IMG/VR virus record: IMGVR_UViG_3300013947_000034
Location: 21,019 to 85,018 of that record
DNA: 64,000 nucleotides
Source of the DNA: a virus
Lineage: Duplodnaviria > Caudoviricetes
Reading direction: 5' to 3' (one strand)
Every line of letters starts with the position of its first letter. Positions within the stretch are counted from its first letter, which is position 1. The position numbers and the translations under genes were made by a program. The notes below the pieces were generated by a model that was not told where the DNA came from, did no database searches, and saw only the letters and a program-made list of their open reading frames with translations. This document shows positions 1 to 62,113 of the stretch, piece after piece.

Positions 1-3000
1 GTTTACGTAAAGGATTATCAGGTTTAATACTATTTAGTTTATCTTTAGAAGCACTATCGAGTAAAAGAGCACTAGCAACTTCAAAACCTTTATTCTCAGA
101 ATTAGACTGAATAATAGCTTTAACTTCATCAGCTTTAGACGTATAAGTAGTTTTATTATCCATACCTTTTACAGGGCGGCTTTCAGACTTACTAACTACT
201 TCAAAACTAAATCTAGCATTAGCACCTTGTTTATTAGCTGCAACTCTTCTAATATTGCTACCATTTTCTTGAGCCATATTAACTCTAAGAAGATTGTTTT
301 GTTGAACAAAATCTTTAAAGCTATCATAAGTAAGATTTATACCATTCTTTCCTTTATATTCAGGAATGGTAATTTTAAACTTACCGTCAGTAGTTCTACT
401 AGTAATACCTTGAAGAGGAATGTTATGATTATTATCAGACTTTAGAACAGCAAAGTTAATATTGAAATTAAGACCTTCTATTCCTTTAATAAGTCTATCA
501 GCTACAGCAGACAAATCGCCATTATAAGAAATATAAGTAGGTTTACCATCAACTTTACTAATAATTTGACCTACACCATCACCATTTTTATCTCTATAGA
601 AAAGAAGTTGATTATTCTTATTACCAAAGTTAACTCCAAGAATATTTGCAGTTCTAAATACAGATAGTCCTTTACTGAGGAAAATAGGATTCTTATTAAT
701 ATTAAGAAGATTATCAATAAAATCAATAAAGTTATCTCTATTCTCAGTAAAATTCCCATCGTTAATAGAAGCAAGTCTATCTTTAATTTGAGTAACTATA
801 GCACTTTGAAGTTGCTTAAAGTCTTTACCTGTCTCAACGTGTTGTTGTTTGCCATCTTTTGTATAGTATGTAGCACCTGCCCAACTTACAGGATAAGCAT
901 TGACAATATCTACAGTACCATTGCTACGAGGAACAGTAACATAAGTTCGACCAGCACTAACAAGAAATTTATTGCTTCCAATACCATTAATAAATTCTCC
1001 ATTAATAGACTTAGCAGCAATTTCAAACTTAGTATCTTTAGCAATAGCTAATTGAATAGGTTGAGACGTTTCAGCATCACTTTTGAAAGTACCATCATTA
1101 CTGCGAATAAGTTCACCTTCAAATACATCACTAGCTATAATATCAATATTTGGATTATTATCAAGTTTAGCAGTTTCATTATAACTTTCGCGAAGATTAT
1201 CAAACCATCTATCAATAGAATTAGCAACTACTGCACCAGTAAATTTATTAATATTACCTTCAGTAAGAACTTTATAATTATATCTCCAAAGTTTGGCAAG
1301 TCCATTAAGAGCAACTTCATATTCAGGACCAGTTTTATCAGAGTTAATCATATTATTAGCAACCATGTCTTGAACAATAGGATTACTCTTAAATTCGCTA
1401 ACTAGTTGTTCAGCATTAAACTTATCAAAAGCAGCTTTATGAATAATTTCATTAAGTTTAGCATGCTCAGGAGTTTTACTTCTAGCTATATCTTTAAGAA
1501 CTTGTTTAAGTGCTCCATCCTTAGAACCATCAGTTTTGTCTACATGATAAATAAGACCGTCATTCTTTTGGACATATTCGCCTCGTTCACCTTCAGAAGG
1601 AAGTGATATACTACCAATAAGTTTACCGTTAGATTTAATACCTAAACGATTAGTACCTTTAGCTGTAGTAACTCTTTCGATAGTAAGTTTATCTCCGTTT
1701 TTAAGTTTAACTTGTTCAGCATAATTCTCCTTTAAGTTTTCATCAGTATCAAAATCAGAAAGATTCATATTAACTCTATGAGTAGTTCCATTAGGAAGAG
1801 CAGCATCTCTTTCAGCTTGAGATTTATGGAAGTTATTCAAGAAAACAACAGGATTACTAACATCGTTTGCATCAGTAATATTAAACTTAGCTTGACCTTC
1901 AGGGGTATTAAGATAAGCAGACAAACTATTAAACATAAAGTCAGCCATAGAATAATCATCATAAGCAGACTTAATATAGTCCATAAGGTTCATAAGATTA
2001 CCATAATACTTACCATTAATTTGAGGAAGTTCAACATCTTTAGCATAAACATCAAGTAAATCACTAACAGCTTGTTTGTAAGAATCATCAAATACTACAG
2101 CCTTACCATCTTTTGTTTTAGCATTACGTTCTTCTTGGTCAAAACTACTGAAATAAACAGAAGCAACAGTACTTTCTTTATTCAATATTTTACTCATCTT
2201 TCTACGAACAAGTTTAAAAGCACTATCTATTACTTGTTTACTTTCAGTTTCACTATAACCTTTAGCAACATAATCATCAAGCATAGCTTTAGCTTCAGTG
2301 TCCAAATTTAAATCAGGAGTAGTTTTAATTTTAGCAATAACTCCTTGAAGTATTTTCTTATCATCAGAATTACTATAGAAATCAGGAACTTTAGCTTCTT
2401 CTTTAGGAGTAGTATCTTCTTCTAAATTGGGAGCAACTGGAACAGTAGGAGCAACTGGAACAGTAGGAGCAACTGTAGTAGTTGTACCTTCTTCTATCCC
2501 CCCGGTAGAAGGTATAGTTGTGTTTCCATTAGTTCCTTCTTCTTGATTTCCTTCAACTCCAAGTTTACCTTGACTAACAACTTCAAACTTACCGTCGTTA
2601 TCAAGTCTAACTATTGGAAAACTTACAGGATTAACGTTTTGCTCAGTAGCAATATCAGCATTTGCGAATAAATCATCATTAGCATTAAGTTTAGGACTTA
2701 GAGGATGAACTTCATATTCATTATCGACATCGGTTGGAACAAGTTGATAATCATCATCAGTAGTCTCTTTACCAGTAGTCGTTGTAAACTTATAATTTGT
2801 AAAATCTAATTTTCCGATTTTACTCGGTTTTATCGCAGACTGCTGTGTACCAACATTCGATAATTGCGTATTTCCTTGCGCTGTGACGCTTTCAACTAAC
2901 GACCCTGATAAATTATTCGTCTGACCAGTTTGAGGGGTTGAGAGCGAAGGATTTAGCGGTTCTACCGTTGGCGATGGTTCAGGAGAAGCAGGAGTTTCAG

Positions 3001-6000
3001 TATTAAGTTGTTCAGCTTCTTCTTCTTGAGCTTGAGCAGCAGCAGGTTTAGTCTCTTCAAATAAATCATCTTTAGCAAGCATTTCTTGAATTTGTTCACC
3101 AAAACGATAATTGAGTTTACCGCTAAGATGAAGACAATCTAGAGCTTCTTTTAAATCTGCTTTATCTTTATCGTTAAGAATTGATACAAAGTTATCATAA
3201 TTTTCAAAGTCTTGATTATAATAAGCACCGATTGCGTTAGTGATAGCATTACGATTATCTTTATTACGTTTAGCTATATCCTTAATAGTATCATAAGTTT
3301 GATTTATAACCTTAACTCTAGCATCATCAAGCGTTTGATTTAAGAAACTAAGTTCACTAGCTATATCTTCTCTATTCTTAACTTGTTTACTTTTAAGGTA
3401 ATCTCTATTAACTTCAGCAATAGCTTTATCTACAAGTAAATCAGTAAGATTTTTACCAACAACTCCAGGAATACCAAATTCATCTGCATCAGTAAGAATT
3501 TGATTAGCTTTTCTACGATTTTCTTCAAATGCTTTATTTTGTTCAGCAATAGTTAGTTCATCAGAATATTTACTAAACTCACCAACTATATTATGTTTAG
3601 TTGCATAATCATCAAGTCTTTTGAAATACTCGGCACGTTTAGCAATATCTTCATTTCCTTCAGCATCGTTTAAATTTAAAGACATAATATCTTTAAGTTC
3701 TTTGCTAGCACCTTCGTTAGGTTTAAATTTAAGAACACCATTTTCGTCATGGAAAGCAGTAATTCCAGTACGAATAGCTTCACGAAGGTAGTCAGGAGTA
3801 AGTTGAGCTTGAACAGCAGCTATATTTTTATTAATATTATCAAGAGCTACAGCACTACTAATATCAGTCTTAGCTTTTTCTTCAATTTCTCTACGTTGAG
3901 CATAAAGTTCAGCAAGATTATTAGCAAGAATTGTTTGAGCTGCAACTCTTTGTAAATCATCAATAGAAGTATCACCTAGTTTATCAGCAATTTCTTTAAC
4001 TTGAAGAGCAGCATTAATATTAGCTTGAGTTAAACCAAGTTTGTCTTCTTGACGAGCAATATCTTGACCATACTTTACATTGTTTGTAGCAATCATTTGA
4101 AGATACTCAATTGGAATAACTTGGTCATCCTTACGATGAGCAGCATAGTTATCAGCAATATTCATAACTCTAGTAAGTTCATTATCGTATTGTTGAGTAA
4201 CTTCATCCATTTTATTAAGTATCTCTTGTTGAGTTTGAGTAGCATCTTCTTTAGTAGTAATACCTTTATTTACTAAAGCATCACGTACTTCATTAGATTT
4301 CATAAACTCACGAAGATAACCAGCGTTACCGTGATGAGCTGCATTAAGAGTTAAATCAGTAATAAGTTCATCTTGTGCTCTAGATGCAGCAACTTGTTGA
4401 GCTACAGTATTTCCTTTAATATCAGCGTTTTCACTAGGAGCAGCAAAAGGATTAACTCCTTCTTTTATCTTAGCAGCTCTATCAAAGAATATATTAAAGT
4501 TATTCAACCAAGACTGCATATTATCTCTACGAGCTTTAACTTCACCAGTTTCACTAAGACCAAAAGAACTAGGAGTACTTTCTCCAGTTTGTTCGTCAGT
4601 TTTAGTTTTAGATTTTTCATCTATAGTAGCTTGAACTCTACCAAAAGCAGAACCTAAATGATGAAATACTACACCACCCATTACTCCCCAAAAAGCAGAA
4701 TCAGCAAGTCCTCCGCTACGAAGATACTTTTTCATTCTATCATCCCAAGGAGATTTATCTGCATCTGCTTCATCAAGAAGAACATGACCAAGATTAGTAC
4801 CTTCCATTTGAGCAATATAGTTTACACCTTCTTCAAGACCTTCACTAAGTTCTCCAGCTACAATAAGCTTTTCGTTTTTAAGTCTATCCCAAACTTTATT
4901 ACGAGCTTTAGTCCAAGTAGAAACTTTATCAGCAGCAGCTTTAATTTCTTCTTCAGTTTTGCCTATAGCAAGTCTATTGTTACGAAGAGTTTCATTAAGA
5001 CTAGCACTACCGCTTCTATTTTTAAGACCTTTCCAAAAACCTCTAAGTCCATACATTTGAATAATATCAAACGTAAGATTACCAAAGTTATATTTAAAGT
5101 CTTCATCAGCAGAAGCTTTAGAAATCTTTCTAGCAACAGCATCTTTATCAGAAGTATCAATATCTTGAAGTAGTTCTTGATTCTTATTTACAAATGCTTG
5201 ATAATCTTGATTATTCATACTATTAAGCTTATCAGTAGCAGTTTTATAAACATCTTGATAAACTCCTTGCGCTTCTTGATAATTTTCCATCATACGTTGA
5301 AGTACAGCATTACCTCCAACATTAGCAAAAGTATTAAGCTTACCTCCTTCTCTAGTGCTATTAATAATTCTAGCAGCAGCAGATTGAAAACCAGTAAGAT
5401 GAGTACCTTCTACCCCACGCTCAATATTATCAAGAGTTTTATTAATACCAAATAAACTTTTAAGACCGCTACGACTACGAGCACCGAGTTTAAGAGCTTT
5501 ACCTATAGTACCAACTCCTTTCATAATTCCACTAGCAGGAAGAAGTAAAGTTAAACTAGACATTACACTAGGGAAATTACTAGCCCACCAACCGAAATTT
5601 GTAAGACCTCCACTATAAATATCATTACGTGTAGGGTCACTATAAATTGGAGCTACTTCTTGGTCGAAATAATCTTGCCATTCTTTAATTGTATTACTAA
5701 TAGGATTTTGGTAATCACCATCACTAGTAAAGAAACCATTAGCGACAGCATCAAACAAATCAGGAACAGCTTTAAGTGTACCAAGAATAGCTTGACTAAC
5801 AAGAGCTTGACTTAAAGCATTACCAGCTTTAGTCCAATTAGACTGATTTTCAGCACGCTCTTTGTCAAGATTAGTAATTGGATTAGGAGTAACACCATAG
5901 TGTTGATAACTATGAGTATCGCCCATAACCCAAGTACTACCTACGTTCTTAGCAAATTCATTAGCTGCACCTGAAGTATTATCTTGATTTACATCTAAAG

Positions 6001-6103
6001 TATGAAAGAAGGGTTGTTGAGCACGACCCTTCTTTGTTTTAGGATTATAATTAGGATTACTAACTATAATTCCACTATTATTAAAAACACCTTCTGTATT
6101 CAT
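1..6103 (-). CDS. Giant virion/ejection protein of the crAss-type virion RNA polymerase gene cluster (partial, >2030 aa, runs off left edge)
   Basis: ATG at 6103 (MNTEGVFNNSGII...), 2 nt after the previous stop. The ORF track reports no terminated ORF in this frame and spot translations (160-181, 2440-2515, 2850-2941) are open. Position downstream of cargo genes matches crAss-like giant genes. No DxDxD RNAP catalytic motif was noticed in the visible part. Confidence 0.8.
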   Translation of the reverse strand, partial: MNTEGVFNNSGIIVSNPNYNPKTKKGRAQQPFFHTLDVNQDNTSGAANEFAKNVGSTWVMGDTHSYQHYGVTPNPITNLDKERAENQSNWTKAGNALSQALVSQAILGTLKAVPDLFDAVANGFFTSDGDYQNPISNTIKEWQDYFDQEVAPIYSDPTRNDIYSGGLTNFGWWASNFPSVMSSLTLLLPASGIMKGVGTIGKALKLGARSRSGLKSLFGINKTLDNIERGVEGTHLTGFQSAAARIINSTREGGKLNTFANVGGNAVLQRMMENYQEAQGVYQDVYKTATDKLNSMNNQDYQAFVNKNQELLQDIDTSDKDAVARKISKASADEDFKYNFGNLTFDIIQMYGLRGFWKGLKNRSGSASLNETLRNNRLAIGKTEEEIKAAADKVSTWTKARNKVWDRLKNEKLIVAGELSEGLEEGVNYIAQMEGTNLGHVLLDEADADKSPWDDRMKKYLRSGGLADSAFWGVMGGVVFHHLGSAFGRVQATIDEKSKTKTDEQTGESTPSSFGLSETGEVKARRDNMQSWLNNFNIFFDRAAKIKEGVNPFAAPSENADIKGNTVAQQVAASRAQDELITDLTLNAAHHGNAGYLREFMKSNEVRDALVNKGITTKEDATQTQQEILNKMDEVTQQYDNELTRVMNIADNYAAHRKDDQVIPIEYLQMIATNNVKYGQDIARQEDKLGLTQANINAALQVKEIADKLGDTSIDDLQRVAAQTILANNLAELYAQRREIEEKAKTDISSAVALDNINKNIAAVQAQLTPDYLREAIRTGITAFHDENGVLKFKPNEGASKELKDIMSLNLNDAEGNEDIAKRAEYFKRLDDYATKHNIVGEFSKYSDELTIAEQNKAFEENRRKANQILTDADEFGIPGVVGKNLTDLLVDKAIAEVNRDYLKSKQVKNREDIASELSFLNQTLDDARVKVINQTYDTIKDIAKRNKDNRNAITNAIGAYYNQDFENYDNFVSILNDKDKADLKEALDCLHLSGKLNYRFGEQIQEMLAKDDLFEETKPAAAQAQEEEAEQLNTETPASPEPSPTVEPLNPSLSTPQTGQTNNLSGSLVESVTAQGNTQLSNVGTQQSAIKPSKIGKLDFTNYKFTTTTGKETTDDDYQLVPTDVDNEYEVHPLSPKLNANDDLFANADIATEQNVNPVSFPIVRLDNDGKFEVVSQGKLGVEGNQEEGTNGNTTIPSTGGIEEGTTTTVAPTVPVAPTVPVAPNLEEDTTPKEEAKVPDFYSNSDDKKILQGVIAKIKTTPDLNLDTEAKAMLDDYVAKGYSETESKQVIDSAFKLVRRKMSKILNKESTVASVYFSSFDQEERNAKTKDGKAVVFDDSYKQAVSDLLDVYAKDVELPQINGKYYGNLMNLMDYIKSAYDDYSMADFMFNSLSAYLNTPEGQAKFNITDANDVSNPVVFLNNFHKSQAERDAALPNGTTHRVNMNLSDFDTDENLKENYAEQVKLKNGDKLTIERVTTAKGTNRLGIKSNGKLIGSISLPSEGERGEYVQKNDGLIYHVDKTDGSKDGALKQVLKDIARSKTPEHAKLNEIIHKAAFDKFNAEQLVSEFKSNPIVQDMVANNMINSDKTGPEYEVALNGLAKLWRYNYKVLTEGNINKFTGAVVANSIDRWFDNLRESYNETAKLDNNPNIDIIASDVFEGELIRSNDGTFKSDAETSQPIQLAIAKDTKFEIAAKSINGEFINGIGSNKFLVSAGRTYVTVPRSNGTVDIVNAYPVSWAGATYYTKDGKQQHVETGKDFKQLQSAIVTQIKDRLASINDGNFTENRDNFIDFIDNLLNINKNPIFLSKGLSVFRTANILGVNFGNKNNQLLFYRDKNGDGVGQIISKVDGKPTYISYNGDLSAVADRLIKGIEGLNFNINFAVLKSDNNHNIPLQGITSRTTDGKFKITIPEYKGKNGINLTYDSFKDFVQQNNLLRVNMAQENGSNIRRVAANKQGANARFSFEVVSKSESRPVKGMDNKTTYTSKADEVKAIIQSNSENKGFEVASALLLDSASKDKLNSIKPDNPLRK
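162..181 (+). repeat. 20-bp dispersed motif copy 1 (perfect, in CDS, read as SRPVKGM)
   Basis: ATACCTTTTACAGGGCGGCT. Confidence 0.9.
2430..2475. repeat. 18-bp tandem repeat (2.5 units) coding TVPVAP linker
   Basis: GGAGCAACTGGAACAGTA x2 plus GGAGCAACTG. Confidence 0.9.
2496..2515 (-). repeat. 20-bp motif copy 2 (in CDS, IPSTGG)
   Basis: ATACCTTCTACCGGGGGGAT. Confidence 0.8.
2854..2940. repeat. Composite ~90-bp element, coding copy
   Basis: ATTCGAT..GCG-TATTTCCT ... TGATAAATTATTC ... TTTGAGGG, colinear with 56151-56234. Confidence 0.65.
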
Positions 6104-6105
6104 AA

Positions 6106-8055
6106 TTAATCAATGTCTATATTATAAGCATCATCATCATACATTCCTATATTACTAAGAATATAATTAGAATAAATAGCTCGTTGATTATTAATAAGAT
6201 TAATATTATCAGTATCAATAAAACTACTCATAGCTTTAGCTAGTTTAGTTTTATAATCATCAGAAGAGAAATCTTCATTAACTACATTATTAGCAATAGG
6301 AGCAAAACTTTTCCAAGCATCAGGATAAAGTTCACTCATAGCACTAGTAACATAAGCATCAACTTGTTTAGTTAAATCAGTTTGGAATTGAGTATTAATA
6401 GCCCCATTTTTACCAACAATACCTTTACGAAGATTACCATCTTCATCATAAAATTGTTTGTTTGCCAAATCAATACCATCTTCAACTATAAGCATTTTAT
6501 TGACTTTACGAAGAGCATCATTCTTATCTAGAGGTTGAACTCTACCATTAGCATATTCCATTTGATAAACAGCTTTACCAGTAGCAGGGTCATTATAAAC
6601 ATTAAGTTTACCATCTTGAGGAATATCAACACCATATTGATACATTTCCATACTAGCAAGTTCTTTCATAGCTCTAGTCTGAGAATTTTGAGCAAATACT
6701 CTCTCAGCTTCACCATTCATAAAATCAGGAATAAATATCTGACGACTATTTTGTTTAATATCATCAATTTGATTGCCAGTTTCAGAATCTTTATCAATCT
6801 TAGTTGGAATAGTAATTACATAACCTGTTTGATTACCTTGCATACCGAGAGAAACTTGAGTATCAGGGTCAAACTTTCCACTAGCAATAGCAGCACGAAC
6901 TAAATCTTGAATATTAGCTTTTTCATTGCTATTATCTATAGCATGACGAACAGTTGTATGTTTATCTGAATCTTCTTCATCAGTAACATACATTTCATAC
7001 TGAGTAAAGTCAGCATTCATAAGACCATTAAGAATAGCATTACTATTTTCTTTTACAAGAGAATTAGCTAATTCAGTATTAAGTCTACCACTATTAAGAG
7101 CATCACTAATTTGTTTACGACGAGCACTATTAAAAGGAAGAATCATAGAACTAACAGTAGATACACCATTATTATCTACACCTTTTATCGGGCGGATAGT
7201 TTGTTTAGCTAATTCTATACTTAAAGCAGGAGCTTCAAAATTATCTATCATACTAACACTAGGATTGTAATAATATCCGTCACTTTGTTCAGTATTACTT
7301 GAACTACCAGTAAGTCTAGTAGCTATATCTAGCCCTTGATGTTTAATATTACCACGTTCCATAACAGAACTAGGAAGATTACTTTGATTGTTTTTAATAA
7401 GCTTACCTTTAGCATCAATACCAGCTATCTGAAACCTATAGAGACCTTTATCGTTCTTAATATTGCGAATAGTATCATATACTTTATTAAATAAAGAACT
7501 ACGTTTACTAATATCAAGAATATATTGACCATCTTTAATTCTAATTTTAGCACCAGCCTTTTTTAAAGCAGCTTGAGTAAGATGAGCACGCTTGAGCATA
7601 TCAGTAAATGCATCATTATCATATTCAACATCTTTAGCTAACCAATCAATGCCAAGAAAAGTTCTCTTTTCAGTTTTGTCACCAAATTTAATAGAAAGAC
7701 CTTCAGCATCAGTTCCTTTTATACTACCAAGATTTCTTTTAGCATCAGAATAAGCTTTACTAAAAGAATTACTTGCAGGAATTACATTACCGTCAGAATC
7801 TTTTCCGTTATTAAGTCCTGGTAGAAGATTATCATTATTAACTGCGTTAAGAAAAGCATAAGCTTTACGTTGATTTTCGTCAAAATGAGACATCATACCT
7901 TGTATTCTACGACCATCAGTTCTAAGCTTCTTAATGGTTGCATTAACCATTTGTTGTTTAACTGGGTCAGCAAAGTGAGCACGAGATAAATAATTAGCAG
8001 CACCAGCATAATCTCCATCACTTATAAACTTGTCATATATCTTTTTACTAAGCAT
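6106..8055 (-). CDS. 649-aa probable virion cargo/ejection protein
   Basis: Long ORF with typical codon usage, tightly packed between the 408-aa gene and the giant gene; function inferred from synteny. Confidence 0.6.
   Translation of the reverse strand: MLSKKIYDKFISDGDYAGAANYLSRAHFADPVKQQMVNATIKKLRTDGRRIQGMMSHFDENQRKAYAFLNAVNNDNLLPGLNNGKDSDGNVIPASNSFSKAYSDAKRNLGSIKGTDAEGLSIKFGDKTEKRTFLGIDWLAKDVEYDNDAFTDMLKRAHLTQAALKKAGAKIRIKDGQYILDISKRSSLFNKVYDTIRNIKNDKGLYRFQIAGIDAKGKLIKNNQSNLPSSVMERGNIKHQGLDIATRLTGSSSNTEQSDGYYYNPSVSMIDNFEAPALSIELAKQTIRPIKGVDNNGVSTVSSMILPFNSARRKQISDALNSGRLNTELANSLVKENSNAILNGLMNADFTQYEMYVTDEEDSDKHTTVRHAIDNSNEKANIQDLVRAAIASGKFDPDTQVSLGMQGNQTGYVITIPTKIDKDSETGNQIDDIKQNSRQIFIPDFMNGEAERVFAQNSQTRAMKELASMEMYQYGVDIPQDGKLNVYNDPATGKAVYQMEYANGRVQPLDKNDALRKVNKMLIVEDGIDLANKQFYDEDGNLRKGIVGKNGAINTQFQTDLTKQVDAYVTSAMSELYPDAWKSFAPIANNVVNEDFSSDDYKTKLAKAMSSFIDTDNINLINNQRAIYSNYILSNIGMYDDDAYNIDID
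7178..7197 (+). repeat. 20-bp motif copy 3 (in CDS, IRPIKGV)
   Basis: ACACCTTTTATCGGGCGGAT. Confidence 0.75.
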
Positions 8056-8061
8056 AACTCT

Positions 8062-9288
8062 TTAATTTAAAATACCACATTCAGATAATTGTCTACTAGT
8101 TTGTTGAAATACAGAACCGTCTGTTTTGACATCATAACTATATTCTCCAGGGTTACTAATATAAGTACCACCCAAAGTAGGAATAGGAGAAGTAATATTA
8201 CTAATATCAGTATTAGTAGAAAGAGCATGTTTTGTACTAAAGCTTAAACCTCTAGTAATACTATTACCAGTTTGAGTACTAGTAGTTATGTTATCATAAG
8301 CCATATTCTTAGTAATAATACCTATCTTACTAAGCATATATTCTTTAACTTTAAGAGGTTGCCCATTATCGTCATAAACATCACTCTTTAAAGCGGCAAT
8401 ATTGTTCTCAATATTCTTACGCTCACCTTCATCTGTAGTAGTTTCAAGTTTGTCATTAAGTTGTCCAACTTTCCATACAAGGTCATCGTATTGTTGAATA
8501 AGAGCGTTCATATTATCAGGGTCAAGAGCAAAGAGGTTATTATATACCTCATCAATTTTCTTCTTAGTTAAAGTTTCTCTTTGATAACTAGAACCACTTT
8601 GAGTGCTATAACCAAGTTTTACAGAACGAAGACTATCAGAACCAGAAGAAGCATTTCCTCCAACACCTTGTTCATCAGAAACACTAGACTGTGAACTACT
8701 ACTTGTAGCTTTCTTAACTGGAGCAGCAAGTTGACCAGCAAGAGTAACAAGACGACTAAGGTCAACTTTCTTAACTGGTTCCCAATTAGCTTTCCATTCA
8801 GAACCACCAACTATGTTGCCATTATCATCTTTAATATCTTCATAAGCATATTTATTTTGAGCAAGCCAACGTTCTTTAGTAAGACCTCCAATAACTCCAC
8901 TATTAGCAAGGGATTCAACTTCGCCTTTCTTCTTTTCATAAGCTTCATTAGCACGAATACGACCAATAACTTCAGGAGAAGAAGTAGCACTACCAGCTAA
9001 TTCAGTAGCAACATCTAAAGCTCTACTATAATCTCCATATTGAGCTGCATCGTTAATTTGTTGTTCAATACGTTTAGCATAATCATATTTCCACTTATCT
9101 TCAGCAGCGTTAAGTTTAAGCTGACCAATAGCGTTTGTAATAGCGGACTTTTGTTGAATTGCTTTATCAGAACGTTCATCAATCTTATTTAATGCTTGAG
9201 CAAGAGCATCAAGATTTGCACGAACAGGAATACGTTGAGGTACATAACCACCAATCGTAATAGTACTTTGATTATCCTTATAAGCCAT
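8062..9288 (-). CDS. 408-aa probable virion cargo/ejection protein
   Basis: Helical N-terminus and Ser/Thr-rich middle; first gene after the terminator-promoter pair at 9.3 kb. Confidence 0.55.
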   Translation of the reverse strand: MAYKDNQSTITIGGYVPQRIPVRANLDALAQALNKIDERSDKAIQQKSAITNAIGQLKLNAAEDKWKYDYAKRIEQQINDAAQYGDYSRALDVATELAGSATSSPEVIGRIRANEAYEKKKGEVESLANSGVIGGLTKERWLAQNKYAYEDIKDDNGNIVGGSEWKANWEPVKKVDLSRLVTLAGQLAAPVKKATSSSSQSSVSDEQGVGGNASSGSDSLRSVKLGYSTQSGSSYQRETLTKKKIDEVYNNLFALDPDNMNALIQQYDDLVWKVGQLNDKLETTTDEGERKNIENNIAALKSDVYDDNGQPLKVKEYMLSKIGIITKNMAYDNITTSTQTGNSITRGLSFSTKHALSTNTDISNITSPIPTLGGTYISNPGEYSYDVKTDGSVFQQTSRQLSECGILN

Positions 9289-9314
9289 AATATTATTAAT
9301 TTATTTACTAGTTA

Positions 9315-9322
9315 CAAAAATA
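9315..9322 (-). promoter_or_regulatory. Bacteroidetes-type -7 promoter element
   Basis: TATTTTTG fits TAnnTTTG; between terminator and 408-aa gene. Confidence 0.55.
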
Positions 9323-9327
9323 GCAAA

Positions 9328-9357
9328 ACTTCTGATAGTATTAACACTATCAGAAGT
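9328..9357 (-). terminator. Intrinsic terminator after cargo gene
   Basis: Perfect 12-bp ACTTCTGATAGT/ACTATCAGAAGT followed by TTTG. Confidence 0.75.
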
Positions 9358-9369
9358 AATTACTATATT

Positions 9370-12300
9370 TTAATTAATACCATACTTTCTACGTTCCTTA
9401 TCGGTAAGCATACTTAAATAGAAATTCTTAGTACGTTCATCAGTAGAAGCATTATACAAACCTGCAATCATTTGAGGAGAAAGATTATAGCCCATTTCGA
9501 GAAGTCTTGTAGGACTAGCTTCTTTACTAGAAGCAATCATAGCACGTCTACTTTGGTCATCTTCATAAGCAGTTCTACCAGCAGTCCAGAAATTAGTCCA
9601 AGCTTGAGACAAACCGCTAAGACCGACATTAAGAGCTTGAGCTTTAGATTGAACAGCATCGTTTTTAATCTTAGCAATTTCGCTTTGACGAGCAAGTTCA
9701 TTCTGAGCATTCTGAATAGCAACAGCTTGTTGATTCTTAGCGTCCTCAGTAAGCATCTTATTTTCTTCATTTTCCTTAGTAGCATAAAGTTTACTAAGTT
9801 GCTCAAGAGCTGTAAGATTAACATCATTTGCTCTATTAAGAGCGGCTACAGAACTAGAAGTATTATTATAAACTTGACTACTAAGTCTGTCTCTTTGACG
9901 TTTTATTTCTTCTACTTGAGGAGCAATATTATAATTAGTAGGAAGTTTACTAGCACTAATAATAGGTGCTCTATCAGGAAGATAATATTTACCAGCAGCA
10001 TTATAATTAATAAGACCAGTACTCAAAGCAGCAAGACTATCAATTCCTAGACCTACATAATCTCCACCAGTAAAAATAGTATGGGATTTACTACGAGGTA
10101 AACCACGATAAGGAACTTCAACATCTTCTGTAGGAGGAGTATAAGGGAGGTTAGGCACACTTACTTTATTAAAATTAGGAATCGTAGTAGCGTTTGTATT
10201 AATAGTAACAAAAGAGGGAGTTCTCCATTTTGCAGTAGCAACTACTGGATTAAGTTCTCCACCTATTTGGTCATATTCTTCTTTACCATATAAAGCTTTA
10301 TGTCTCATACCTTTTACAGGGCGGCTAGAAATTAAACTTCCACCAAGTTTATATTTAGCAACACCTCCATATCTAAAAGGGGCATCCATATAATCAAATA
10401 TATCTATTTTATTATGGATGTCAAAATTTCTAATTTTATCTTTTCCTTGCAATCGTCTACTTTTATCTAAAAGATAATTTCTACGAAGAGTTCTATTAAT
10501 TGTTCTATAATTTACATCTTTCATAAACTTAGTTTCTTTATTAAAATCGTATGCTTTACGAGGTTTCATAAATATTCTAGCTTCTCTAATAAAATCATCA
10601 AAACGATTATATTCTCTAGGTATGAAATAATTTTCATCACCTTTTTGAAAATCAACACCATCAGTATTCCAACGACCTGATTTATTGGTTTGGTTTAGAT
10701 ATTCTTCTAGATTTTGTAATGTAATCTTATCTTCTTTTGCAGAACTAGGCAAATAAGCACGTTCTGTTACATTAAGTATATCACCGTTGCTTCTACCATA
10801 ATTATCTTCTATTGCTATAGCTCCTTTCTTTCTAGCATCTTCGATAGATTCTTTATAATGTTTAGTACCAGCAAAAACATTATTATGTCCTCCTCTAACA
10901 ACTTTCATTCTTGCAGCTCTTAATTGGTCAGCAATAGGTTTACTTTTATCAATATCGAAATCATAGAACAATTTACCTATATAACCGTTGCTTATTCCGT
11001 CATTTGGATTTTTAAAAGCGTTAGCTATTCCTCTACTATTAGAAGTATATAAACCACCATTAGTATTCAATCTATCTCCTCCTCCACGATACGATTTAAT
11101 TGTAGTAAGATAATTTTTAGCAGTTTCTTTATCGTTAGCATATACTCCACGAAGACTTGTTTGTTGACGCTTTAAAAATTCGTCCACAGTACGCTGTTCA
11201 TTCCAAGGATATTTAACTTTAGGATAATTGACTTCTTCAAGAAACTTATAATATTCAGGATTATGATTCATTAAATCATAATAAGCATCTTGCTCAACTT
11301 TATTTGCAAAACCAGTAGAACCCCAACTATAACCATAATAAGTAGTTGGATTTCCAACAGGTTTTCCATTATGTGTAGGTTGAATCACTTGACCGTGATA
11401 TTTAGGAGCTTTCTTATTAAAACTATATTTAAAAAAATCTCGTTCCCTTCTATCAGGCGTAATGTAAGTATAAAATAAATCAGGATTTTTATTAACAGCT
11501 TTATTACGAACTTCAATAGGATATTCATACCAATTATTTTCAAAAGGTCTATTACCCAATGCGACATCTAAATTTTTGTCATAATTTTGTTGAATAGTTC
11601 TATAATCTCCTCTATCTAAAAGACCTGCTTTTTTATAAAGCTTATTAAGCTTATATCCATATTTTCCGTAATTCATAGGATTACGAAGAATGTTAGCAAT
11701 TTTATTTCCTACAATACCTAATCCTATATCACCAATAGCGTTAACTCCTAAACTCAAATAAGGATGTTCTTTAGCATATTCAGTATTAAGAAAACCACCA
11801 GTATCATTCATCATATAATGACGAAGAAAATCATTAGTGTTTTTACTATCACGAATAGAACCATATATGTTACTAGGTGTAAAATTAAGAATAGGAGCAG
11901 CAGCCGCTGTAGTAAAATTTACAGCACCCATTGGGTCATAATAAGAACTAGTATCTTTTTTACCTGCTTCTTTCCAATGATTAGCTTTACCAGTAATAAC
12001 TACATCTTCACCGTTTGTTGCAGAAGTAGTATAATTTTTACCATCTAAAGTATCAGTAAATGTACCATCATTATTAATGTGAATACGAGAATAAGGAATA
12101 GCAGTTCCTTGTCTAGCTTTACTTCCATCATCTTTAAGTCCATTTCTTTTCTTAAAATCTTGCTGTTCAGCAAACACTTTATCTTTATTGTAACCACGAA
12201 GAATAGCTTGAGCAGGAGACATTCCATTACCAAGAATAGGTTGAGCACTAAAAATTCTTAGAGCACCATTCTTTTTCTGAGCAACTTCACCACCTTCAGC

Positions 12301-12963
12301 TTCAACTTCATTACCACCAACATTAATACCTATACCAGTTTGACCAGTCTCGTTAATATCTTCATGAGAGCCGCCCTGTAAAAGGTATGTATTGTTGTCT
12401 ACCTTAGTAGCATCACCACCATCAGTAATATAAATACCTTTAGCACCAAGAGTTTTACCAAGTCTAGCAGCAGTTCTAAATTGTCTAAGATAATCTTCTT
12501 GATAATCAGAACTATTATTAAGCGCTTGTGTCATAGCGTTAGCTTCTTGAGTAGTGTCTTGCCAATCTTGCATGCTCTTTTGAAGACGCATTTGTTTCTT
12601 CTTTGCAGAATTACCAAAAATAGAACTAGCAATAGAAGTTGCAGCTCCAATAGCAGCACCAATCCAACATTTCTTACGACCACCAAGTTTCATCTTAGTA
12701 GGGTCATTAGGAATAGTTATTCTATTAAACCCACTAGGAGTACTAGGAAGTGGATTGGGGGCATCAAGATTTTTAATACCCTCAACATCAACTTTAGGTT
12801 GATTATTGTTAGTATTATTAACCTGATGCTTACTGACAGCACTATCTACAATAGAACCAGCAGCCGAAGCTACTGGTGCTATATAAGAAGTAAAGAAACT
12901 ACCGAAGTCAGCTTTAGGTCTACCACCACAACGAAGACTTCTTCTTTTAGTTTTTACAGTCAT
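9370..12963 (-). CDS. 1197-aa cargo-protein-1-like virion protein with a large central insert
   Basis: Directly downstream of the muzzle gene. Repeated basic-x-x-GG motifs, hydrophobic Gly/Ala segments (WIGAAIGAATSIASSIFG) and a coiled-coil C-terminus. Central ~590 aa looks accessory. Confidence 0.6.
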   Translation of the reverse strand: MTVKTKRRSLRCGGRPKADFGSFFTSYIAPVASAAGSIVDSAVSKHQVNNTNNNQPKVDVEGIKNLDAPNPLPSTPSGFNRITIPNDPTKMKLGGRKKCWIGAAIGAATSIASSIFGNSAKKKQMRLQKSMQDWQDTTQEANAMTQALNNSSDYQEDYLRQFRTAARLGKTLGAKGIYITDGGDATKVDNNTYLLQGGSHEDINETGQTGIGINVGGNEVEAEGGEVAQKKNGALRIFSAQPILGNGMSPAQAILRGYNKDKVFAEQQDFKKRNGLKDDGSKARQGTAIPYSRIHINNDGTFTDTLDGKNYTTSATNGEDVVITGKANHWKEAGKKDTSSYYDPMGAVNFTTAAAAPILNFTPSNIYGSIRDSKNTNDFLRHYMMNDTGGFLNTEYAKEHPYLSLGVNAIGDIGLGIVGNKIANILRNPMNYGKYGYKLNKLYKKAGLLDRGDYRTIQQNYDKNLDVALGNRPFENNWYEYPIEVRNKAVNKNPDLFYTYITPDRRERDFFKYSFNKKAPKYHGQVIQPTHNGKPVGNPTTYYGYSWGSTGFANKVEQDAYYDLMNHNPEYYKFLEEVNYPKVKYPWNEQRTVDEFLKRQQTSLRGVYANDKETAKNYLTTIKSYRGGGDRLNTNGGLYTSNSRGIANAFKNPNDGISNGYIGKLFYDFDIDKSKPIADQLRAARMKVVRGGHNNVFAGTKHYKESIEDARKKGAIAIEDNYGRSNGDILNVTERAYLPSSAKEDKITLQNLEEYLNQTNKSGRWNTDGVDFQKGDENYFIPREYNRFDDFIREARIFMKPRKAYDFNKETKFMKDVNYRTINRTLRRNYLLDKSRRLQGKDKIRNFDIHNKIDIFDYMDAPFRYGGVAKYKLGGSLISSRPVKGMRHKALYGKEEYDQIGGELNPVVATAKWRTPSFVTINTNATTIPNFNKVSVPNLPYTPPTEDVEVPYRGLPRSKSHTIFTGGDYVGLGIDSLAALSTGLINYNAAGKYYLPDRAPIISASKLPTNYNIAPQVEEIKRQRDRLSSQVYNNTSSSVAALNRANDVNLTALEQLSKLYATKENEENKMLTEDAKNQQAVAIQNAQNELARQSEIAKIKNDAVQSKAQALNVGLSGLSQAWTNFWTAGRTAYEDDQSRRAMIASSKEASPTRLLEMGYNLSPQMIAGLYNASTDERTKNFYLSMLTDKERRKYGIN
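10307..10326 (+). repeat. 20-bp motif copy 4 (perfect, in CDS, SRPVKGM)
   Basis: ATACCTTTTACAGGGCGGCT. Confidence 0.9.
12369..12388 (-). repeat. 20-bp motif copy 5 (perfect, in CDS, YLLQGGS)
   Basis: AGCCGCCCTGTAAAAGGTAT on + strand. Confidence 0.9.
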
Positions 12964-12966
12964 AAT

Positions 12967-17328: not shown

Positions 17329-17333
17329 AATTG

Positions 17334-18092
17334 TTATCTTCTTGGGTCAAAGGTTGAATTATAGAAGAAGTTTCTCCAACCTTCATCATTATACATATCA
17401 TTACGAACAGAAGCAATAGCTTTAGTTTTTAAAGCTTGCCATTGAAGATAAGGATTAGTAACAGGACTATTACTTTTCAAATCATAAACTTGATGATGAC
17501 TTCCACGACTAAGATATTTATAAAGAATATAATAAACTATAGCCTCAAGTAAAAGACCGTTATCATAAACATAAGGAACTTCACAATCATAATACTCATC
17601 ATAATATGTCATAGGTTCATAACTTTCTACAGTAATATTATCGGTATCAAAGTTAAGTTCAATATGTCCATTATCGGTTATTACAAAGTTACGATTAGTA
17701 TCTCTATTAATAACTTTACCAACTCTCATAAAATTAACTCCAGTTGTATTAGTATCATCAATAATAGCAATTTCAGAATCTAATTCATTATTATTGTTTG
17801 AATTAAGTTCTGAACTACAACAACTAGATGTATCTTCAAGTTGCTTTATTTCGCAACCGTTATTGTCATAAACTTTAATTTCTGTAGCATTAAGCTTACA
17901 AGGAAATATAGCTATACGACTATGAACTTCTAGTTTACGTTTCTTCTTTGCCATTGGAAGACACTTCATTTGACTAAGAGCATCAATAATCCAAGCAGCA
18001 GCACGAGGAATCCAATCGCTCTCGCTTAGGTTAAAGTCATTATCAACTTTGCCTACTATACGCTGCATAGTAACTTTTTGTTTGACCTTCAT
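17334..18092 (-). CDS. Tail tubular/ring protein
   Basis: 252 aa, WIIDAL and YILYKYL helices, immediately upstream of muzzle gene as in crAss-like tail modules. Confidence 0.6.
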   Translation of the reverse strand: MKVKQKVTMQRIVGKVDNDFNLSESDWIPRAAAWIIDALSQMKCLPMAKKKRKLEVHSRIAIFPCKLNATEIKVYDNNGCEIKQLEDTSSCCSSELNSNNNNELDSEIAIIDDTNTTGVNFMRVGKVINRDTNRNFVITDNGHIELNFDTDNITVESYEPMTYYDEYYDCEVPYVYDNGLLLEAIVYYILYKYLSRGSHHQVYDLKSNSPVTNPYLQWQALKTKAIASVRNDMYNDEGWRNFFYNSTFDPRR

Positions 18093-18981: not shown

Positions 18982-18984
18982 AGC

Positions 18985-19671: not shown

Positions 19672-19698
19672 ATCATTATTAATTTAATTATTAATGAA

Positions 19699-19755
19699 AG
19701 CCGCCCGGTAAAAGGTATAACAATGTACACATACAATACCTTTTACAGGGCGGCT
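19699..19755. repeat. Inverted doublet of 20-bp motif (copies 6 and 7), 17-nt spacer
   Basis: AGCCGCCCGGTAAAAGGTAT-aacaatgtacacataca-ATACCTTTTACAGGGCGGCT. Confidence 0.9.
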
Positions 19756-19771
19756 AGATTCACTATTCTTA

Positions 19772-40510: not shown

Positions 40511-40600
40511 ATTCGATTTTTGCTACAATCCTTTTACAGGGCGGCTTTAAAATGCTTTCGTGAATAACTTATCACCAACTAATCGAAAGTGCCACAGAGA
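40511..40600. repeat. Composite element, intergenic copy (reverse) containing motif copy 13
   Basis: ATTCGATTTTTGCTA, GTGAATAACTTATCA (40560-40574), CCAACTAATCGAAAGTGCCACAG. Confidence 0.7.
40527..40546 (+). repeat. 20-bp motif copy 13 (intergenic, inside composite element)
   Basis: AATCCTTTTACAGGGCGGCT. Confidence 0.88.
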
Positions 40601-45479: not shown

Positions 45480-45829
45480 TTCAATAAACTTAAAATCAAT
45501 AATACAATAGCGGCAGCAGCACCACCTATAGTGACATTACGTTGTGTCTTTACTTTCTTACTCTGCCTACGAAGTAAAACACATTCTTGTCTAGTTTGTT
45601 CAATAAGAACACTATCATTCTTGACAATTTGTCTAAGCTTACTATTAATATTTTTCTCATAACTTAATTGAATTAATTTTGAATTAGCTTTACGAAGGTC
45701 AGCAACAGCAACAGTTACACTATCAGGAGAGCCGCCCTGTAAAAGGTATAGATTCTTACTTGATGAGTTGATAGAACAACTTAACAGTACTATCATTATC
45801 AAGTGCTTCAACTTCAATAACTTTCGCAT
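45476..45829 (-). CDS. Spanin-like lipoprotein with additional C-terminal TM helix
   Basis: MRKLLKLKHLIMIVLLSC lipoprotein-type signal; C-terminal VTIGGAAAAIVLLILSLLK; overlaps upstream gene by 74 nt. Confidence 0.5.
   Translation of the reverse strand: MRKLLKLKHLIMIVLLSCSINSSSKNLYLLQGGSPDSVTVAVADLRKANSKLIQLSYEKNINSKLRQIVKNDSVLIEQTRQECVLLRRQSKKVKTQRNVTIGGAAAAIVLLILSLLK
45730..45749 (-). repeat. 20-bp motif copy 14 (perfect, in CDS, YLLQGGS)
   Basis: AGCCGCCCTGTAAAAGGTAT on + strand. Confidence 0.9.
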
Positions 45830-49690: not shown

Positions 49691-49710
49691 AGACCCCCGG
49701 TAAGAGGTAT
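49691..49710 (-). repeat. 20-bp motif copy 15 (intergenic)
   Basis: ATACCTCTTACCGGGGGTCT. Confidence 0.75.
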
Positions 49711-50490: not shown

Positions 50491-50510
50491 ATACCTTTTA
50501 CAGGGCGGCT
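50491..50510 (+). repeat. 20-bp motif copy 16 (perfect, 3 nt past RepL-like stop)
   Basis: ATACCTTTTACAGGGCGGCT. Confidence 0.9.
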
Positions 50511-50513: not shown

Positions 50514-51029
50514 TTATCTAACACTTCTACTAGTAAGGTCTTTAACACCAAAAGCAACTTTATTAGTCGGATTAGTATTATGATTATCAATAGTTGTAGG
50601 AATGTCTAGAAACTCTTCAAATTCAAGAGCTTTAAATTCATTAATAACAACACCAGCAGTATTATTAATATCTTTAATAGTACTATTAACTTGTTCATTC
50701 CAATTATCTATATTAATATTTCTAACAACCAAAGGATTAAGAAGATACCAATTACGATTAGGCTTAACTACATTCGGATAATCAGCAACAATATCTTGCC
50801 ATCTACACATACAATGATTATCTATAAGAATTTTAATAGCATTTCTTATAGTCTTATCATCCTTAACACCTAAAGCTTTACTAATTCCTTTAACTTCAAG
50901 TTCAACAGTAGTTTGATTAGTATATAAATTAGCAGATACATACTCAAGTATTCTTCTAGCTGTATTATCTTTTATATTAAACGCTACAGCAGGATTATAA
51001 TAATTAATATTGTAATCAAAATTCTTCAT
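50514..51029 (-). CDS. RepL-like winged-helix protein
   Basis: ISKALG...TIRNAIKIL HTH followed by WYLLNP. Confidence 0.55.
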   Translation of the reverse strand: MKNFDYNINYYNPAVAFNIKDNTARRILEYVSANLYTNQTTVELEVKGISKALGVKDDKTIRNAIKILIDNHCMCRWQDIVADYPNVVKPNRNWYLLNPLVVRNINIDNWNEQVNSTIKDINNTAGVVINEFKALEFEEFLDIPTTIDNHNTNPTNKVAFGVKDLTSRSVR

Positions 51030-55076: not shown

Positions 55077-55096
55077 AGCCGCCCTGTAAAAGGTAT
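55077..55096 (-). repeat. 20-bp motif copy 17 (perfect, intergenic)
   Basis: AGCCGCCCTGTAAAAGGTAT on + strand. Confidence 0.9.
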
Positions 55097-56017: not shown

Positions 56018-56149
56018 ATGAATAAAGTAACTGTTCTTCCTTCTCCTCCTGATGTCATTGTTCTTAATGATGATGTTCTTGCTGATATTTATAATGATAT
56101 GCAAGCAGACCAAGCACTTATGCTTGAGCAATCAGGCATTTATGAGTAA
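56018..56149 (+). CDS. 43-aa acidic peptide (below ORF-track cutoff)
   Basis: MNKVTVLPSPPDVIVLNDDVLADIYNDMQADQALMLEQSGIYE, typical codons, 3 nt after previous stop. Confidence 0.6.
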   Translation: MNKVTVLPSPPDVIVLNDDVLADIYNDMQADQALMLEQSGIYE

Positions 56150-56234
56150 AATTCGATTTAAGCGATATTTCCTAGGTTTCACAGCCCTCAATTAGTTTGG
56201 TTGATAAGTTATTCACTAAATTAATTTGAGGGCT
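56148..56234. repeat. Composite element, intergenic copy
   Basis: TCGATTTAAGCG, AGCCCTCAA/TTGAGGGCT stem around TGATAAGTTATTCAC (56202-56216). Confidence 0.75.
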
Positions 56235-56506: not shown

Positions 56507-57308
56507 AGAATTAGCTGTTGGTAGTATTGTAGAATATAATGGTAATAAATATAAAGTGTTAGCTGATTTAGGATGTCCTGATTGTTCTGTAATAAGTATT
56601 TGTCCTAAAACTTGTATGCACAGTCGTGAATTACCAAAACTTAGTCCTGATACTTTTGATAATATTTTTGGTAAATGTTCTTTTTCTGAACGTAATGATG
56701 ACCAATCTGTTGTATTTAAGGAAATAAAGGATGATACATCTACACCTTTTACAGGGGGGCTAGAACAAGCAGACAGCAGCGAAGCTGATGCCGGTACTGA
56801 TAATAATATTCAAAATGTATTTCCTTTATATAAAGATAATAATACCGTTAAAACTATTGTTGTTGATATTCCAAAAGATTATGAGGTTGACATGGAAACT
56901 AGTAGTTTAGTTAAAGGTATTATTAATTTTAAGAAGAAGTATATTAATATTGGTGATGTTTACGATAAACTTAATTCTACAAACATTGTTAGTTACGCAA
57001 AATATGTAAAATATACTAGTGGTCCATCAACAGAAGAAGAACTTAATAAAAACAATTATCTTATTAATTTGGCTAATCTTATGGATATAGCTCAATATTA
57101 TAACGGTGATTGGAAACTAAACTTTAAAGAGTTTGCTCCTAGATATTTCATTAAATTTGATATTACTTCTAATCATTTTAGTGTAGGTCATTGTATGCAA
57201 ACTAATAGTCATTATGTTTATTTTAAGAACAAAGAAGATTGTCAAGCTGTAATTGACAATCCTAATTTTAAAGAAATACTTAATATTATATATGGAAATA
57301 AGAACTAA
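56493..57308 (+). CDS. Two-domain early protein with Cys-rich N-domain
   Basis: 271 aa; acidic linker contains a 20-bp repeat copy. Confidence 0.7.
   Translation: MVKNKELAVGSIVEYNGNKYKVLADLGCPDCSVISICPKTCMHSRELPKLSPDTFDNIFGKCSFSERNDDQSVVFKEIKDDTSTPFTGGLEQADSSEADAGTDNNIQNVFPLYKDNNTVKTIVVDIPKDYEVDMETSSLVKGIINFKKKYINIGDVYDKLNSTNIVSYAKYVKYTSGPSTEEELNKNNYLINLANLMDIAQYYNGDWKLNFKEFAPRYFIKFDITSNHFSVGHCMQTNSHYVYFKNKEDCQAVIDNPNFKEILNIIYGNKN
56742..56761 (+). repeat. 20-bp motif copy 18 (in CDS, TPFTGGL)
   Basis: ACACCTTTTACAGGGGGGCT. Confidence 0.85.
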
Positions 57309-58730: not shown

Positions 58731-58732
58731 TT

Positions 58733-61064: not shown

Positions 61065-61102
61065 TTTTAGCCGTTTACACGATAGGCACGATTAATTAAT
61101 CG

Positions 61103-61122
61103 AGCCGCCCCGTAAAAGGCAT
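61103..61122 (-). repeat. 20-bp motif copy 19 (intergenic)
   Basis: ATGCCTTTTACGGGGCGGCT. Confidence 0.85.
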
Positions 61123-61152
61123 GAAACGTAAAATTAAAATATTAAATAAATT

Positions 61153-61557: not shown

Positions 61558-62113
61558 ATGCTCTAATTGTGCCCTAGGATTATTTAATGAAAAATGTAAA
61601 TGTCTTAGTGGTGTTGGCAATCCAATGTCAGGTAAACTAATTGTTGTACCTAATGTTGATTATCGAGCTTATAAGAATAGAGGAATGACTTTTAGCAAAT
61701 ATGTGGAAATAGTAAAAGATATACTCATGTCTTCTACCGGGGGTCTAGAGCAACTAGACGTATTTATAGTTCCTCTTATTCGTTGTAAGCTTACTGATAA
61801 ATGTCCTGTAACAGACGATATTGCTAAGAATTGTATGACTTATACTTTTGATGATATTGTTAATAATGATATACATAAAGTAATGTTACTTGGAAGTGCT
61901 GCTTTCTATGCAGGTTTTCCTAGTAGTAGTATTACTAAAGATAAGTTATTTGTTCTTGGTAATGTTGTTTATAGTACGGCATATTCTCCTTTTGTCAAAT
62001 TTAAAGATGATATTAAATACAAAGAACTTTGTAATCGTCTTATTAAATGGTATGGTGCTGACAAAACTAATAATTATAATGGAATGGAAATAGTAATGCA
62101 GAATGATACATAG
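61538..62113 (+). CDS. Uracil-DNA glycosylase family 4-like protein, degenerate active site
   Basis: C-x2-C and C-x14-C Fe-S-type cysteines, VMLLGSAA; lacks GE(A/G)PG and HP motifs. Confidence 0.65.
   Translation: MMELNNKCSNCALGLFNEKCKCLSGVGNPMSGKLIVVPNVDYRAYKNRGMTFSKYVEIVKDILMSSTGGLEQLDVFIVPLIRCKLTDKCPVTDDIAKNCMTYTFDDIVNNDIHKVMLLGSAAFYAGFPSSSITKDKLFVLGNVVYSTAYSPFVKFKDDIKYKELCNRLIKWYGADKTNNYNGMEIVMQNDT
61727..61746 (+). repeat. 20-bp motif copy 20 (in CDS, MSSTGGL)
   Basis: ATGTCTTCTACCGGGGGTCT. Confidence 0.75.

Follow-up and report, generated by a model that had tools for sequence, protein, structure and literature searches.

A recurrent 20-bp word in a gut phage genome as an apparent dialect of a strand-alternating DNA signal of the Intestiviridae

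When the same asymmetric, GC-rich word of 20 bp recurs throughout a phage genome, both inside genes and between them, a simple question has to be answered before any function can be considered: is the word read in the DNA, and if so, by what kind of machinery? Here this question is addressed for a stretch of 64,000 nucleotides, hereafter the window, which corresponds to bases 21019-85018 of the 85,018-bp IMG/VR record IMGVR_UViG_3300013947_000034 (88% complete). A preliminary description of the window had listed 20 sites that fit a common, slightly degenerate consensus. When the window is scanned with this consensus at up to three mismatches, 19 of these sites are recovered at exactly the same coordinates, as compared with none in 100 dinucleotide-preserving shuffles; the twentieth, at 24752 on the minus strand, is weaker, with the core TTCTACCGGGGG retained and a degenerate 3' end. 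The accompanying counts could all be reproduced, namely, seven identical copies, nine copies on the plus strand and 11 on the minus strand, ten copies within genes, and a largest gap of about 7 kb (7.3 kb). The complete record contains 26-27 copies (13 plus, 13 minus), which, when placed against genes called as long open reading frames, are divided into 14 genic and 12 intergenic ones; three intergenic inverted doublets are found, of which the window contains 19699/19736 and 30601/30637. As detailed below, comparison of genomes indicates that the word is the local dialect of a DNA-level recognition signal that is common to the whole family Intestiviridae.

The affiliation of the phage follows from its major capsid protein, which is 93% identical to that of the uncultured phage cr8_1 and 63% identical to that of p-crAssphage; by this measure, the phage belongs to the Crassvirales, family Intestiviridae, Obtuvirinae, near Fohxhuevirus cr8_1. 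Complete genomes were scanned with a loose core pattern, with the reversed sequences as control. All ten Intestiviridae genomes, including the present one, carry 17-31 copies each, the reversed sequences yielding only 0-3: there are 28 copies in cr8_1, 30 and 28 in the IMG/VR relatives G001 and G002, respectively, 17 in cr271_1, 20 in ctcc615, 29 in cr3_1, 30 in cr110_1, 29 in p-crAssphage LMMB, and 31 in the cultured crAss002. The same word emerges as the top signal of each genome from an independent de novo search for enriched 10-mers. All dialects share the core YTYYACGGGG, and their information content is 29-43 bits over 16-20 bp. The following dialects can be distinguished:

This genome: ATACCTTTTAC(A/C)GGGCGGCT
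The genus of this genome: TTTTACGGGG(C/G)GGCT
cr271_1: TTCTACGGGGGAGCT
cr110_1: ATCCTCTACGGGGGGTCT
p-crAssphage: CCATCCTCYACGGGGRGT

Outside the family, the core scan did not find the core in one Crevaviridae genome, two Suoliviridae genomes, or Flavobacterium phage Fpv3, and k-mer checks of cr127_1, cr10_1 and Fpv3 showed no analogue of the Intestiviridae word. The Crevaviridae genome cr127_1 (MT774393.1) has a repeat of its own, ten copies of a different, 28-bp GC-rich sequence, TGGCCACAAGGGCGAGAGGTGTTCCGAA, on both strands, with several inverted pairs 180-550 bp apart. In the Suoliviridae genome cr10_1 (NC_055875.1), TTACTYNRGA occurs 51 times, the reversed control having 9, and its occurrences do not alternate in strand; this excess probably reflects codon or peptide usage rather than a version of the Intestiviridae signal. 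Neither does the word appear to belong to the host: in two Bacteroidales genomes, which are not proven hosts, the core YACGGGGRG is found 37 and 46 times, compared to 30 and 44 in the reversed control, so that it is not enriched there and is neither a host word nor a host Chi. The 16-mer of the p-crAssphage dialect is encountered in bacterial assemblies only as single chance matches or as several matches on contigs of 89-98 kb. Three such contigs (CAUWBF010000007.1, CAVAGO010000001.1 and CAJJKI010000006.1), filed under metagenome-assembled genomes (MAGs) of Clostridia or other bacteria, carry several p-crAssphage-dialect copies each and are probably mis-binned crAss-like phages. The literature, including a search for the letters of the motif, yielded no description of it.

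Is the word retained for the sake of a peptide, a transcript, or the DNA itself? The genic copies of the record are read in sense as (T/I)P(S/F)TGG, in sense but in another frame as YLLQGG, or in antisense as SRPVKG, which agrees with the three readings (SRPVKG, YLLQGG, PSTGG/PFTGG) noted previously. Over the ten genomes, five of the six reading frames are used by genic copies, the sixth containing a stop codon, and the ratio of sense to antisense copies (102:70) fits the 3:2 that follows from the open frames (p=0.88). Single intergenic copies are oriented in sense to transcription in 18 cases and in antisense in 22. Taken together, these two ratios imply the absence of transcriptional polarity, and the orientation data exclude roles linked to transcription. 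Intergenic DNA is strongly enriched in copies (36% of them in 7-10% of the DNA, with 64% genic), and the early block is as densely populated as the late block. Upon folding as single strands, eight of ten single copies perform no better than shuffled sequence; the two inverted doublets of the window reach -23.8 kcal/mol (z=-9.1; 19699/19736) and -10.9 kcal/mol (z=-2.9; 30601/30637). A hairpin as a feature of single copies is not supported by this fold test, nor does any stem appear to be conserved across the dialects, and recognition by a guide RNA was rejected in view of the A/C and C/G degeneracies. Judging from these patterns of frame use and folding, the constraint is on DNA and not on peptide or RNA, and on this point the preliminary description proved correct. 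A separate observation pertains to the sense-frame copies at 2496-2530 and 39942-39975, where the 5' part, ACCTTCT, is complementary to a nearby downstream AGAAGGT or AGAAAGG, resulting in a local hairpin (z=-2.5 at 2496); this complementarity may be due to chance or be part of the repeated linker peptide TPSTGGxEEG.

The layout of the copies along the genome is ordered. In the preliminary description, the mixed use of both strands had been taken as a lack of polarity and, hence, as an argument against directional signals; the arrangement in the ten genomes contradicts this view. Of 258 pairs of adjacent copies, 190 lie on opposite strands (p=1.6e-14), and the spacing of the copies is more even than random, with a coefficient of variation (CV) of approximately 0.5 (P<0.003 in eight of the ten genomes). 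Among gaps shorter than 2 kb, 64 are inverted and four are tandem, and all 28 pairs less than 250 bp apart are inverted, the A/T-rich ends facing each other in most close pairs. Copies on the same strand are separated by a median of 6.4 kb, only two of 248 such gaps being shorter than 1 kb, and the CV of the same-strand gaps is 0.2-0.7, not exceeding 0.5 in 18 of the 20 strand sets. Strand alternation combined with even spacing on each strand is a directional signature.

This layout bears on several explanations that might otherwise seem natural. One of them is that the copies are sites of specific single-strand nicking by a phage nickase, as in T5, phiKMV-like and tf/LUZ24-like phages. There is precedent for a long asymmetric consensus in a phage genome being a nick motif (PMC3517423), and the high information content resembles that of homing-endonuclease-type recognition. 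However, since the closest pairs (28 of 28 below 250 bp) always lie on opposite strands, where nicking of both would produce a double-strand break, stable nicks are disfavoured; in addition, an excess of read ends in p-crAssphage is reported only at the terminal-repeat region (PMC10983915), a weak point given that short reads see nicks poorly. Altogether, nicking appears improbable. Slightly less probable still is a stoperator-like role, in which a global repressor or silencer would bind the copies and keep the phage quiescent in a carrier or plasmid-like state. The copy number is similar (about 25-30), the intergenic enrichment is compatible with such a role, the lineage dialects suggest co-evolution with a binder, and a plasmid-like lifestyle has been proposed for p-crAssphage (Schmidtke et al., PMC10983915). 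Nevertheless, the orientation of the copies is independent of transcription, the early block is no different from the late block in copy density, and neither alternation nor even spacing is predicted.

The even coverage of the genome could also be thought to reflect an architectural, partition or packaging tag, that is, parS-like or pac-like sites or sites of a DNA-organising protein. This explanation is weaker than the two preceding ones: such sites are not known to need alternating orientations, packaging is unidirectional, and parS and pac sites are generally few, clustered or palindromic, whereas the word is asymmetric and dispersed in 26-27 copies. Thus, of the binding or recombination site system suggested originally, a system of binding or processing sites survives as the best reading, whereas its parS-like or packaging versions leave the presence of both orientations everywhere unexplained. 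The binders that had been put forward fare poorly as well. The protein of 228 amino acids (aa) encoded at 18985-19671 of the window (minus strand), considered HU/IHF-like, matches the Pfam family PF25702, crAss tail ring protein 2 (E=1e-48); its orthologues are usually annotated as an IHF or histone-like subunit in crAss genomes, but it is probably, on the strength of this match, a component of the tail structure rather than a factor that bends DNA. Its 312-aa neighbour matched nothing, and, with regard to the suggested RepL-like pair, the RepL domain PF01719 is not detectable in the 85,018-bp record (88% complete).

If a protein reads the word, the history of individual sites should be informative. 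Within the Obtuvirinae, genic copies occupy homologous codons in the same orientation in 12 of 13 and 14 of 14 cases, and the word forms an island of identity in alignments that are only about 70% identical; between subfamilies, most copy places have turned over. At 16 sites orthologous with G001, nine motif positions are 100% identical and the flanks are 60-80% identical, while position 12 differs at 14 sites (G to A in seven, G to C in seven). Within a 24-kb block that is approximately 90% identical to G001, seven of seven copies have changed at this position, which is extremely unlikely under the neutral rate of approximately 10% per site, so that the change must have been selected. Furthermore, the change to either A or C, rather than to a single base, is difficult to reconcile with copies made from one master element or with base pairing to a guide RNA. 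Such a concerted change would fit a protein whose contact at this base pair has changed. The block itself, a large mosaic segment, extends over 6.1-30 kb of the whole record (window 1 to about 9000 and the sequence upstream) and carries the virion RNA polymerase and giant virion genes; outside it, identity to G001 is 65-85%. Its left edge falls at the 3' end of the polymerase gene, where a motif copy is located.

The individual copies in the window, with their contexts and relatives, are as follows:

162-181, plus: perfect consensus; antisense in the 2364-aa virion gene (minus strand), SRPVKG; orthologous copy in G001, cr8_1, G002 and ctcc615
2496-2515, minus: TACC variant; sense in the 2364-aa virion gene, IPSTGG; orthologous copy in G001
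7178-7197, plus: TATC variant; antisense in the 649-aa gene at 6106-8055, IRPIKG; identity to G001 falls from 0.88 to 0.63 exactly at the copy
10307-10326, plus: perfect; antisense in the 1197-aa gene at 9370-12963, SRPVKG
12369-12388, minus: perfect; sense, other frame, in the same 1197-aa gene (9370-12963), YLLQGG; kept in cr8_1, G001 and G002 as YLLRGG
19699-19718, minus: left arm of inverted doublet 1; intergenic, between a 168-aa gene and the tail ring protein 2 gene
19736-19755, plus: right arm of inverted doublet 1; intergenic
24752-24771, minus: weaker copy; sense in the 2203-aa gene at 22009-28620, TPSTGG; core intact, 3' end lost
30601-30620, minus: left arm of inverted doublet 2; intergenic; doublet kept in cr8_1, G001 and G002
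30637-30656, plus: right arm of inverted doublet 2; intergenic; doublet kept in the same three genomes
34297-34316, minus: single copy; intergenic; identity island, flanks about 70% identical to relatives
39942-39961, minus: sense in the 454-aa gene adjoining the major capsid gene, TPSTGE; kept in G001, G002, cr271_1 and ctcc615, decayed in cr8_1
40527-40546, plus: single copy; intergenic gap downstream of the portal gene (40703-43129, minus strand)
45730-45749, minus: perfect; sense in the 117-aa gene at 45476-45829, YLLQGG; in relatives at the same place in another frame, IPFTGG
49691-49710, minus: single, degenerate copy; intergenic
50491-50510, plus: perfect; intergenic, 3 nt past the stop codon of the gene at 50514-51029; kept in relatives
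55077-55096, minus: perfect; intergenic in the plus-strand (early/replication) block, antisense to transcription; absent here in G002
56742-56761, plus: sense in a 271-aa gene, TPFTGG; in a lineage-specific linker insertion, orthologues without the copy
61103-61122, minus: intergenic; the sole copy in this genome that retains G at motif position 12
61727-61746, plus: sense in a 191-aa gene (uracil-DNA glycosylase by synteny with cr8_1 gp30), SSTGG; kept across the Obtuvirinae

With this inventory at hand, the possibility of a miniature mobile element (REP/REPIN-like, or similar to mitochondrial GC clusters) that spreads by insertion can be judged. Its attractions are a GC-rich word in a genome of 32% GC, the REPIN-like look of the inverted doublets, and the lineage-specific copy in an inserted linker segment at 56742. 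However, the places of the copies are orthologous across relatives despite diverged flanks, conservation ends approximately 4 bp into the flanks, target duplications are not seen, the dialect change went to A or C instead of one copied sequence, the spacing is even and strand-alternating, and, as discussed below, public contigs show no rearrangement at copies. A mobile element is, therefore, very unlikely. At 56742-56820, the motif copy lies within an acidic linker insertion of approximately 20 residues in the 271-aa gene, an insertion that the orthologues in cr8_1, G001 and G002 do not have; of all the copies analysed, this one shows most clearly a gain that accompanied an indel. Another family of dispersed repeats, with the core TGATAAGTTATTCAC, was flagged in the window at 2854-2940, 28815, 40560 and 56148-56234.

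What, then, might read the word, and to what end? We give a probability of roughly 0.4 to the following reading: the word would be a signal in replication or recombination that is private to the phage, read by a protein and dependent on direction, and would most likely serve the strand-specific initiation of phage DNA synthesis. The reader can be envisaged as a protein specific to the phage lineage that would contact about two turns of DNA and would act, depending on orientation, on whatever travels along the DNA in one direction or the other. Priming or origin-like sites scattered over the genome would then work like single-strand initiation (ssi) sites, with the inverted doublets serving as bidirectional starts, and the control of DNA-end processing and recombination would be a close second role. 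As by-products, the stable hairpins made by the intergenic inverted doublets may act as terminators, and the conserved word may provide a crossover point between diverged relatives.

Initiation of DNA synthesis is the role with the most circumstantial support, by virtue of a copy in the primase gene, of doublets located next to RepL genes and a predicted origin, and of regular spacing on either strand. Among 76 full-length primase genes from IMG/VR (PHROG 12622, annotated as DnaG family), 70 have the motif at codons 273-278. This copy employs TAC GGG GG, that is, rare G-rich codons in a genome of 30% GC, and is read in another frame in two lineages. The primase had no match in PDB or Pfam, so that its domain label rests on PHROG 12622 and the GenBank annotation. 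In p-crAssphage LMMB, inverted doublets are located upstream of both RepL genes, and one of these doublets falls into the region of the replication origin predicted by Schmidtke et al. (PMC10983915).

The main competitor is a phage-private Chi-like signal or polar barrier, whereby a helicase-nuclease or other translocase, entering at a break and running either way, would be attenuated, or switched to recombination, at a correctly oriented copy; the DNA of the phage would thereby be spared and repaired, unlike untagged host DNA. This explanation is a distinctly weaker candidate in our estimate, yet it accounts best for the need for both orientations everywhere, each evenly spaced, as expected for random breaks. 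The information content exceeds that needed for absence from a host genome of 5-6 Mb, bacterial matches to the 16-mer being due to chance or to mis-binned crAss contigs. As for enzymes, the phage encodes an SF1 helicase, and a nuclease, the recombinase RecT and a Gam-like inhibitor are annotated in its relatives. On the other hand, known Chi sequences are 5-8 nt long versus the 16-20 of the word, the core is not over-represented in the two Bacteroidales genomes, the Gam-like inhibitor suggests that the host exonuclease is blocked and not steered, and neither the inverted doublets nor the near-universal primase copy would have a role.

A Chi-like function also fits the link between motif copies and mosaic junctions. 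Among four close genomes, 30% of similarity breakpoints lie within 300 bp of a copy, as compared with 17% expected; most of these breakpoints are at gene ends. For breakpoints inside genes, five of 45 are within 50 bp of a copy versus 1.1 expected (P=0.006), one of them at window position 7178. The copies thus coincide with mosaic junctions, although this may be no more than the effect of a conserved island that serves as a crossover point. The association with recombination suggested in the preliminary description is borne out to the extent of this modest enrichment; it is, however, confounded, and no directional asymmetry of similarity was found around the copies. The phage was present in only four public runs, all from one study and in the form of assembled contigs, with no RNA data set listed among them. 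These four contig sets, compared with window positions 1-20000, revealed no rearrangement at copies, and three apparent joints in public contigs turned out to be cross-matches of 21-27 letters between motif copies. A shufflon-like inversion between the plus copy at 10307 and the minus copy at 12369 was also considered and rejected, there being no long opposite-strand open reading frame and no inverted form in the contigs.

Several points weigh against a directional signal for replication or recombination and should be considered together. The copy in the primase gene overlaps the codons of a YGG peptide that is largely conserved. DnaG-family primases read trinucleotides and not 20 bp, so that an accessory specificity factor would be needed. 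The switch of strand bias at an origin that is expected from simple theta or rolling-circle replication is not seen, and the conserved single-strand hairpin of ssi sites has no equivalent here, only the doublets folding strongly. The link between breakpoints and copies suffers from the preference of both for gene ends and linkers. Finally, the ban on close same-strand copies could stem from selection against direct-repeat deletions in a RecT-encoding phage, and avoidance of close direct repeats could alone produce part of the alternation; should that be the cause, the case for a functional importance of orientation would be weakened. With these points taken into account, strand-specific initiation of DNA synthesis is still slightly favoured over a Chi-like signal or barrier.

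A broader and more speculative possibility, which we consider rather unlikely, is that the Intestiviridae, to which the most abundant phage of the human gut belongs, run a private genome-marking system. In it, approximately 30 words of 20 bp, set at even distances on alternating strands and recognised by a phage protein that co-evolves with them, would mark the DNA as "self" and indicate where a travelling machine (replisome priming, end resection or another translocase) is to act, the dialects corresponding to compatibility groups of co-infecting phages. Apart from this possibility, the existence of dialects, together with the evidence for rewriting of an imported 24-kb block into the resident dialect, suggests a specificity system that could govern recombination or co-replication of crAss phages. 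Every Intestiviridae genome examined carries the signal, p-crAssphage and two cultured isolates among them, so that it concerns the most abundant phage family of the human gut, and its retention in essential genes despite rare codons and odd peptides implies that the reader is probably central to the phage life cycle. In practical terms, the word can be used as a compact family-specific marker for crAss contigs mis-binned into bacterial genomes.

How does this signal compare with the systems that are already known? Minimal origins such as ssiA and ssiB of RSF1010, which work with RepB', or the Rep origin of ColE2 are asymmetric, specific words (about 20-40 nt) that act in a strand-specific manner, with inverted pairs on opposite strands providing a bidirectional start, and the lambda origin, located within gene O, likewise places a copy inside a replication gene. 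In contrast to the approximately 27 dispersed copies seen here, mostly in unrelated genes, a replicon of that type has just one or two sites. Chi, as recognised by RecBCD or AddAB, is also an oriented word, over-represented genome-wide and associated with exchange points, and acts for one travel direction only; it is, however, short and host-owned, whereas the Intestiviridae word is long, phage-private and split into lineage dialects.

The nick motifs of T5, phiKMV-like and tf/LUZ24-like phages resemble the word in being long, conserved and asymmetric and in occupying from a handful to dozens of places. To our knowledge, however, all nicks in these phages lie in one strand, in contrast to the balanced and alternating strands of the ten genomes. 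The stoperators of Cluster A mycobacteriophages, sites of 13-17 bp bound by L5 gp71, have one orientation relative to transcription; they are similar in number (about 25-35 asymmetric sites per genome, genic and intergenic), and their dialects co-evolve with a phage protein, to which the concerted dialect change seen here may be comparable, but the Intestiviridae word is longer, ignores the direction of transcription, and alternates strands. A parallel in statistical pattern is provided by the uptake signal sequences (USS) of Haemophilus and the DNA uptake sequences (DUS) of Neisseria, which are also DNA-level words found in several frames and both orientations, evenly spaced, with intergenic inverted pairs that form terminator-like hairpins; these, however, belong to bacteria, whose competence machinery recognises them at uptake, with no counterpart known for a phage. 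The present comparison contributes five observations on the signal: orthologous sites have switched dialect in concert, with G replaced by A or C; a survey of 76 primase genes shows one copy to be near-universal; the frame ratio of 3:2 is that of the open frames; copies on the same strand are excluded from close proximity; and mosaic junctions inside genes coincide with copies.

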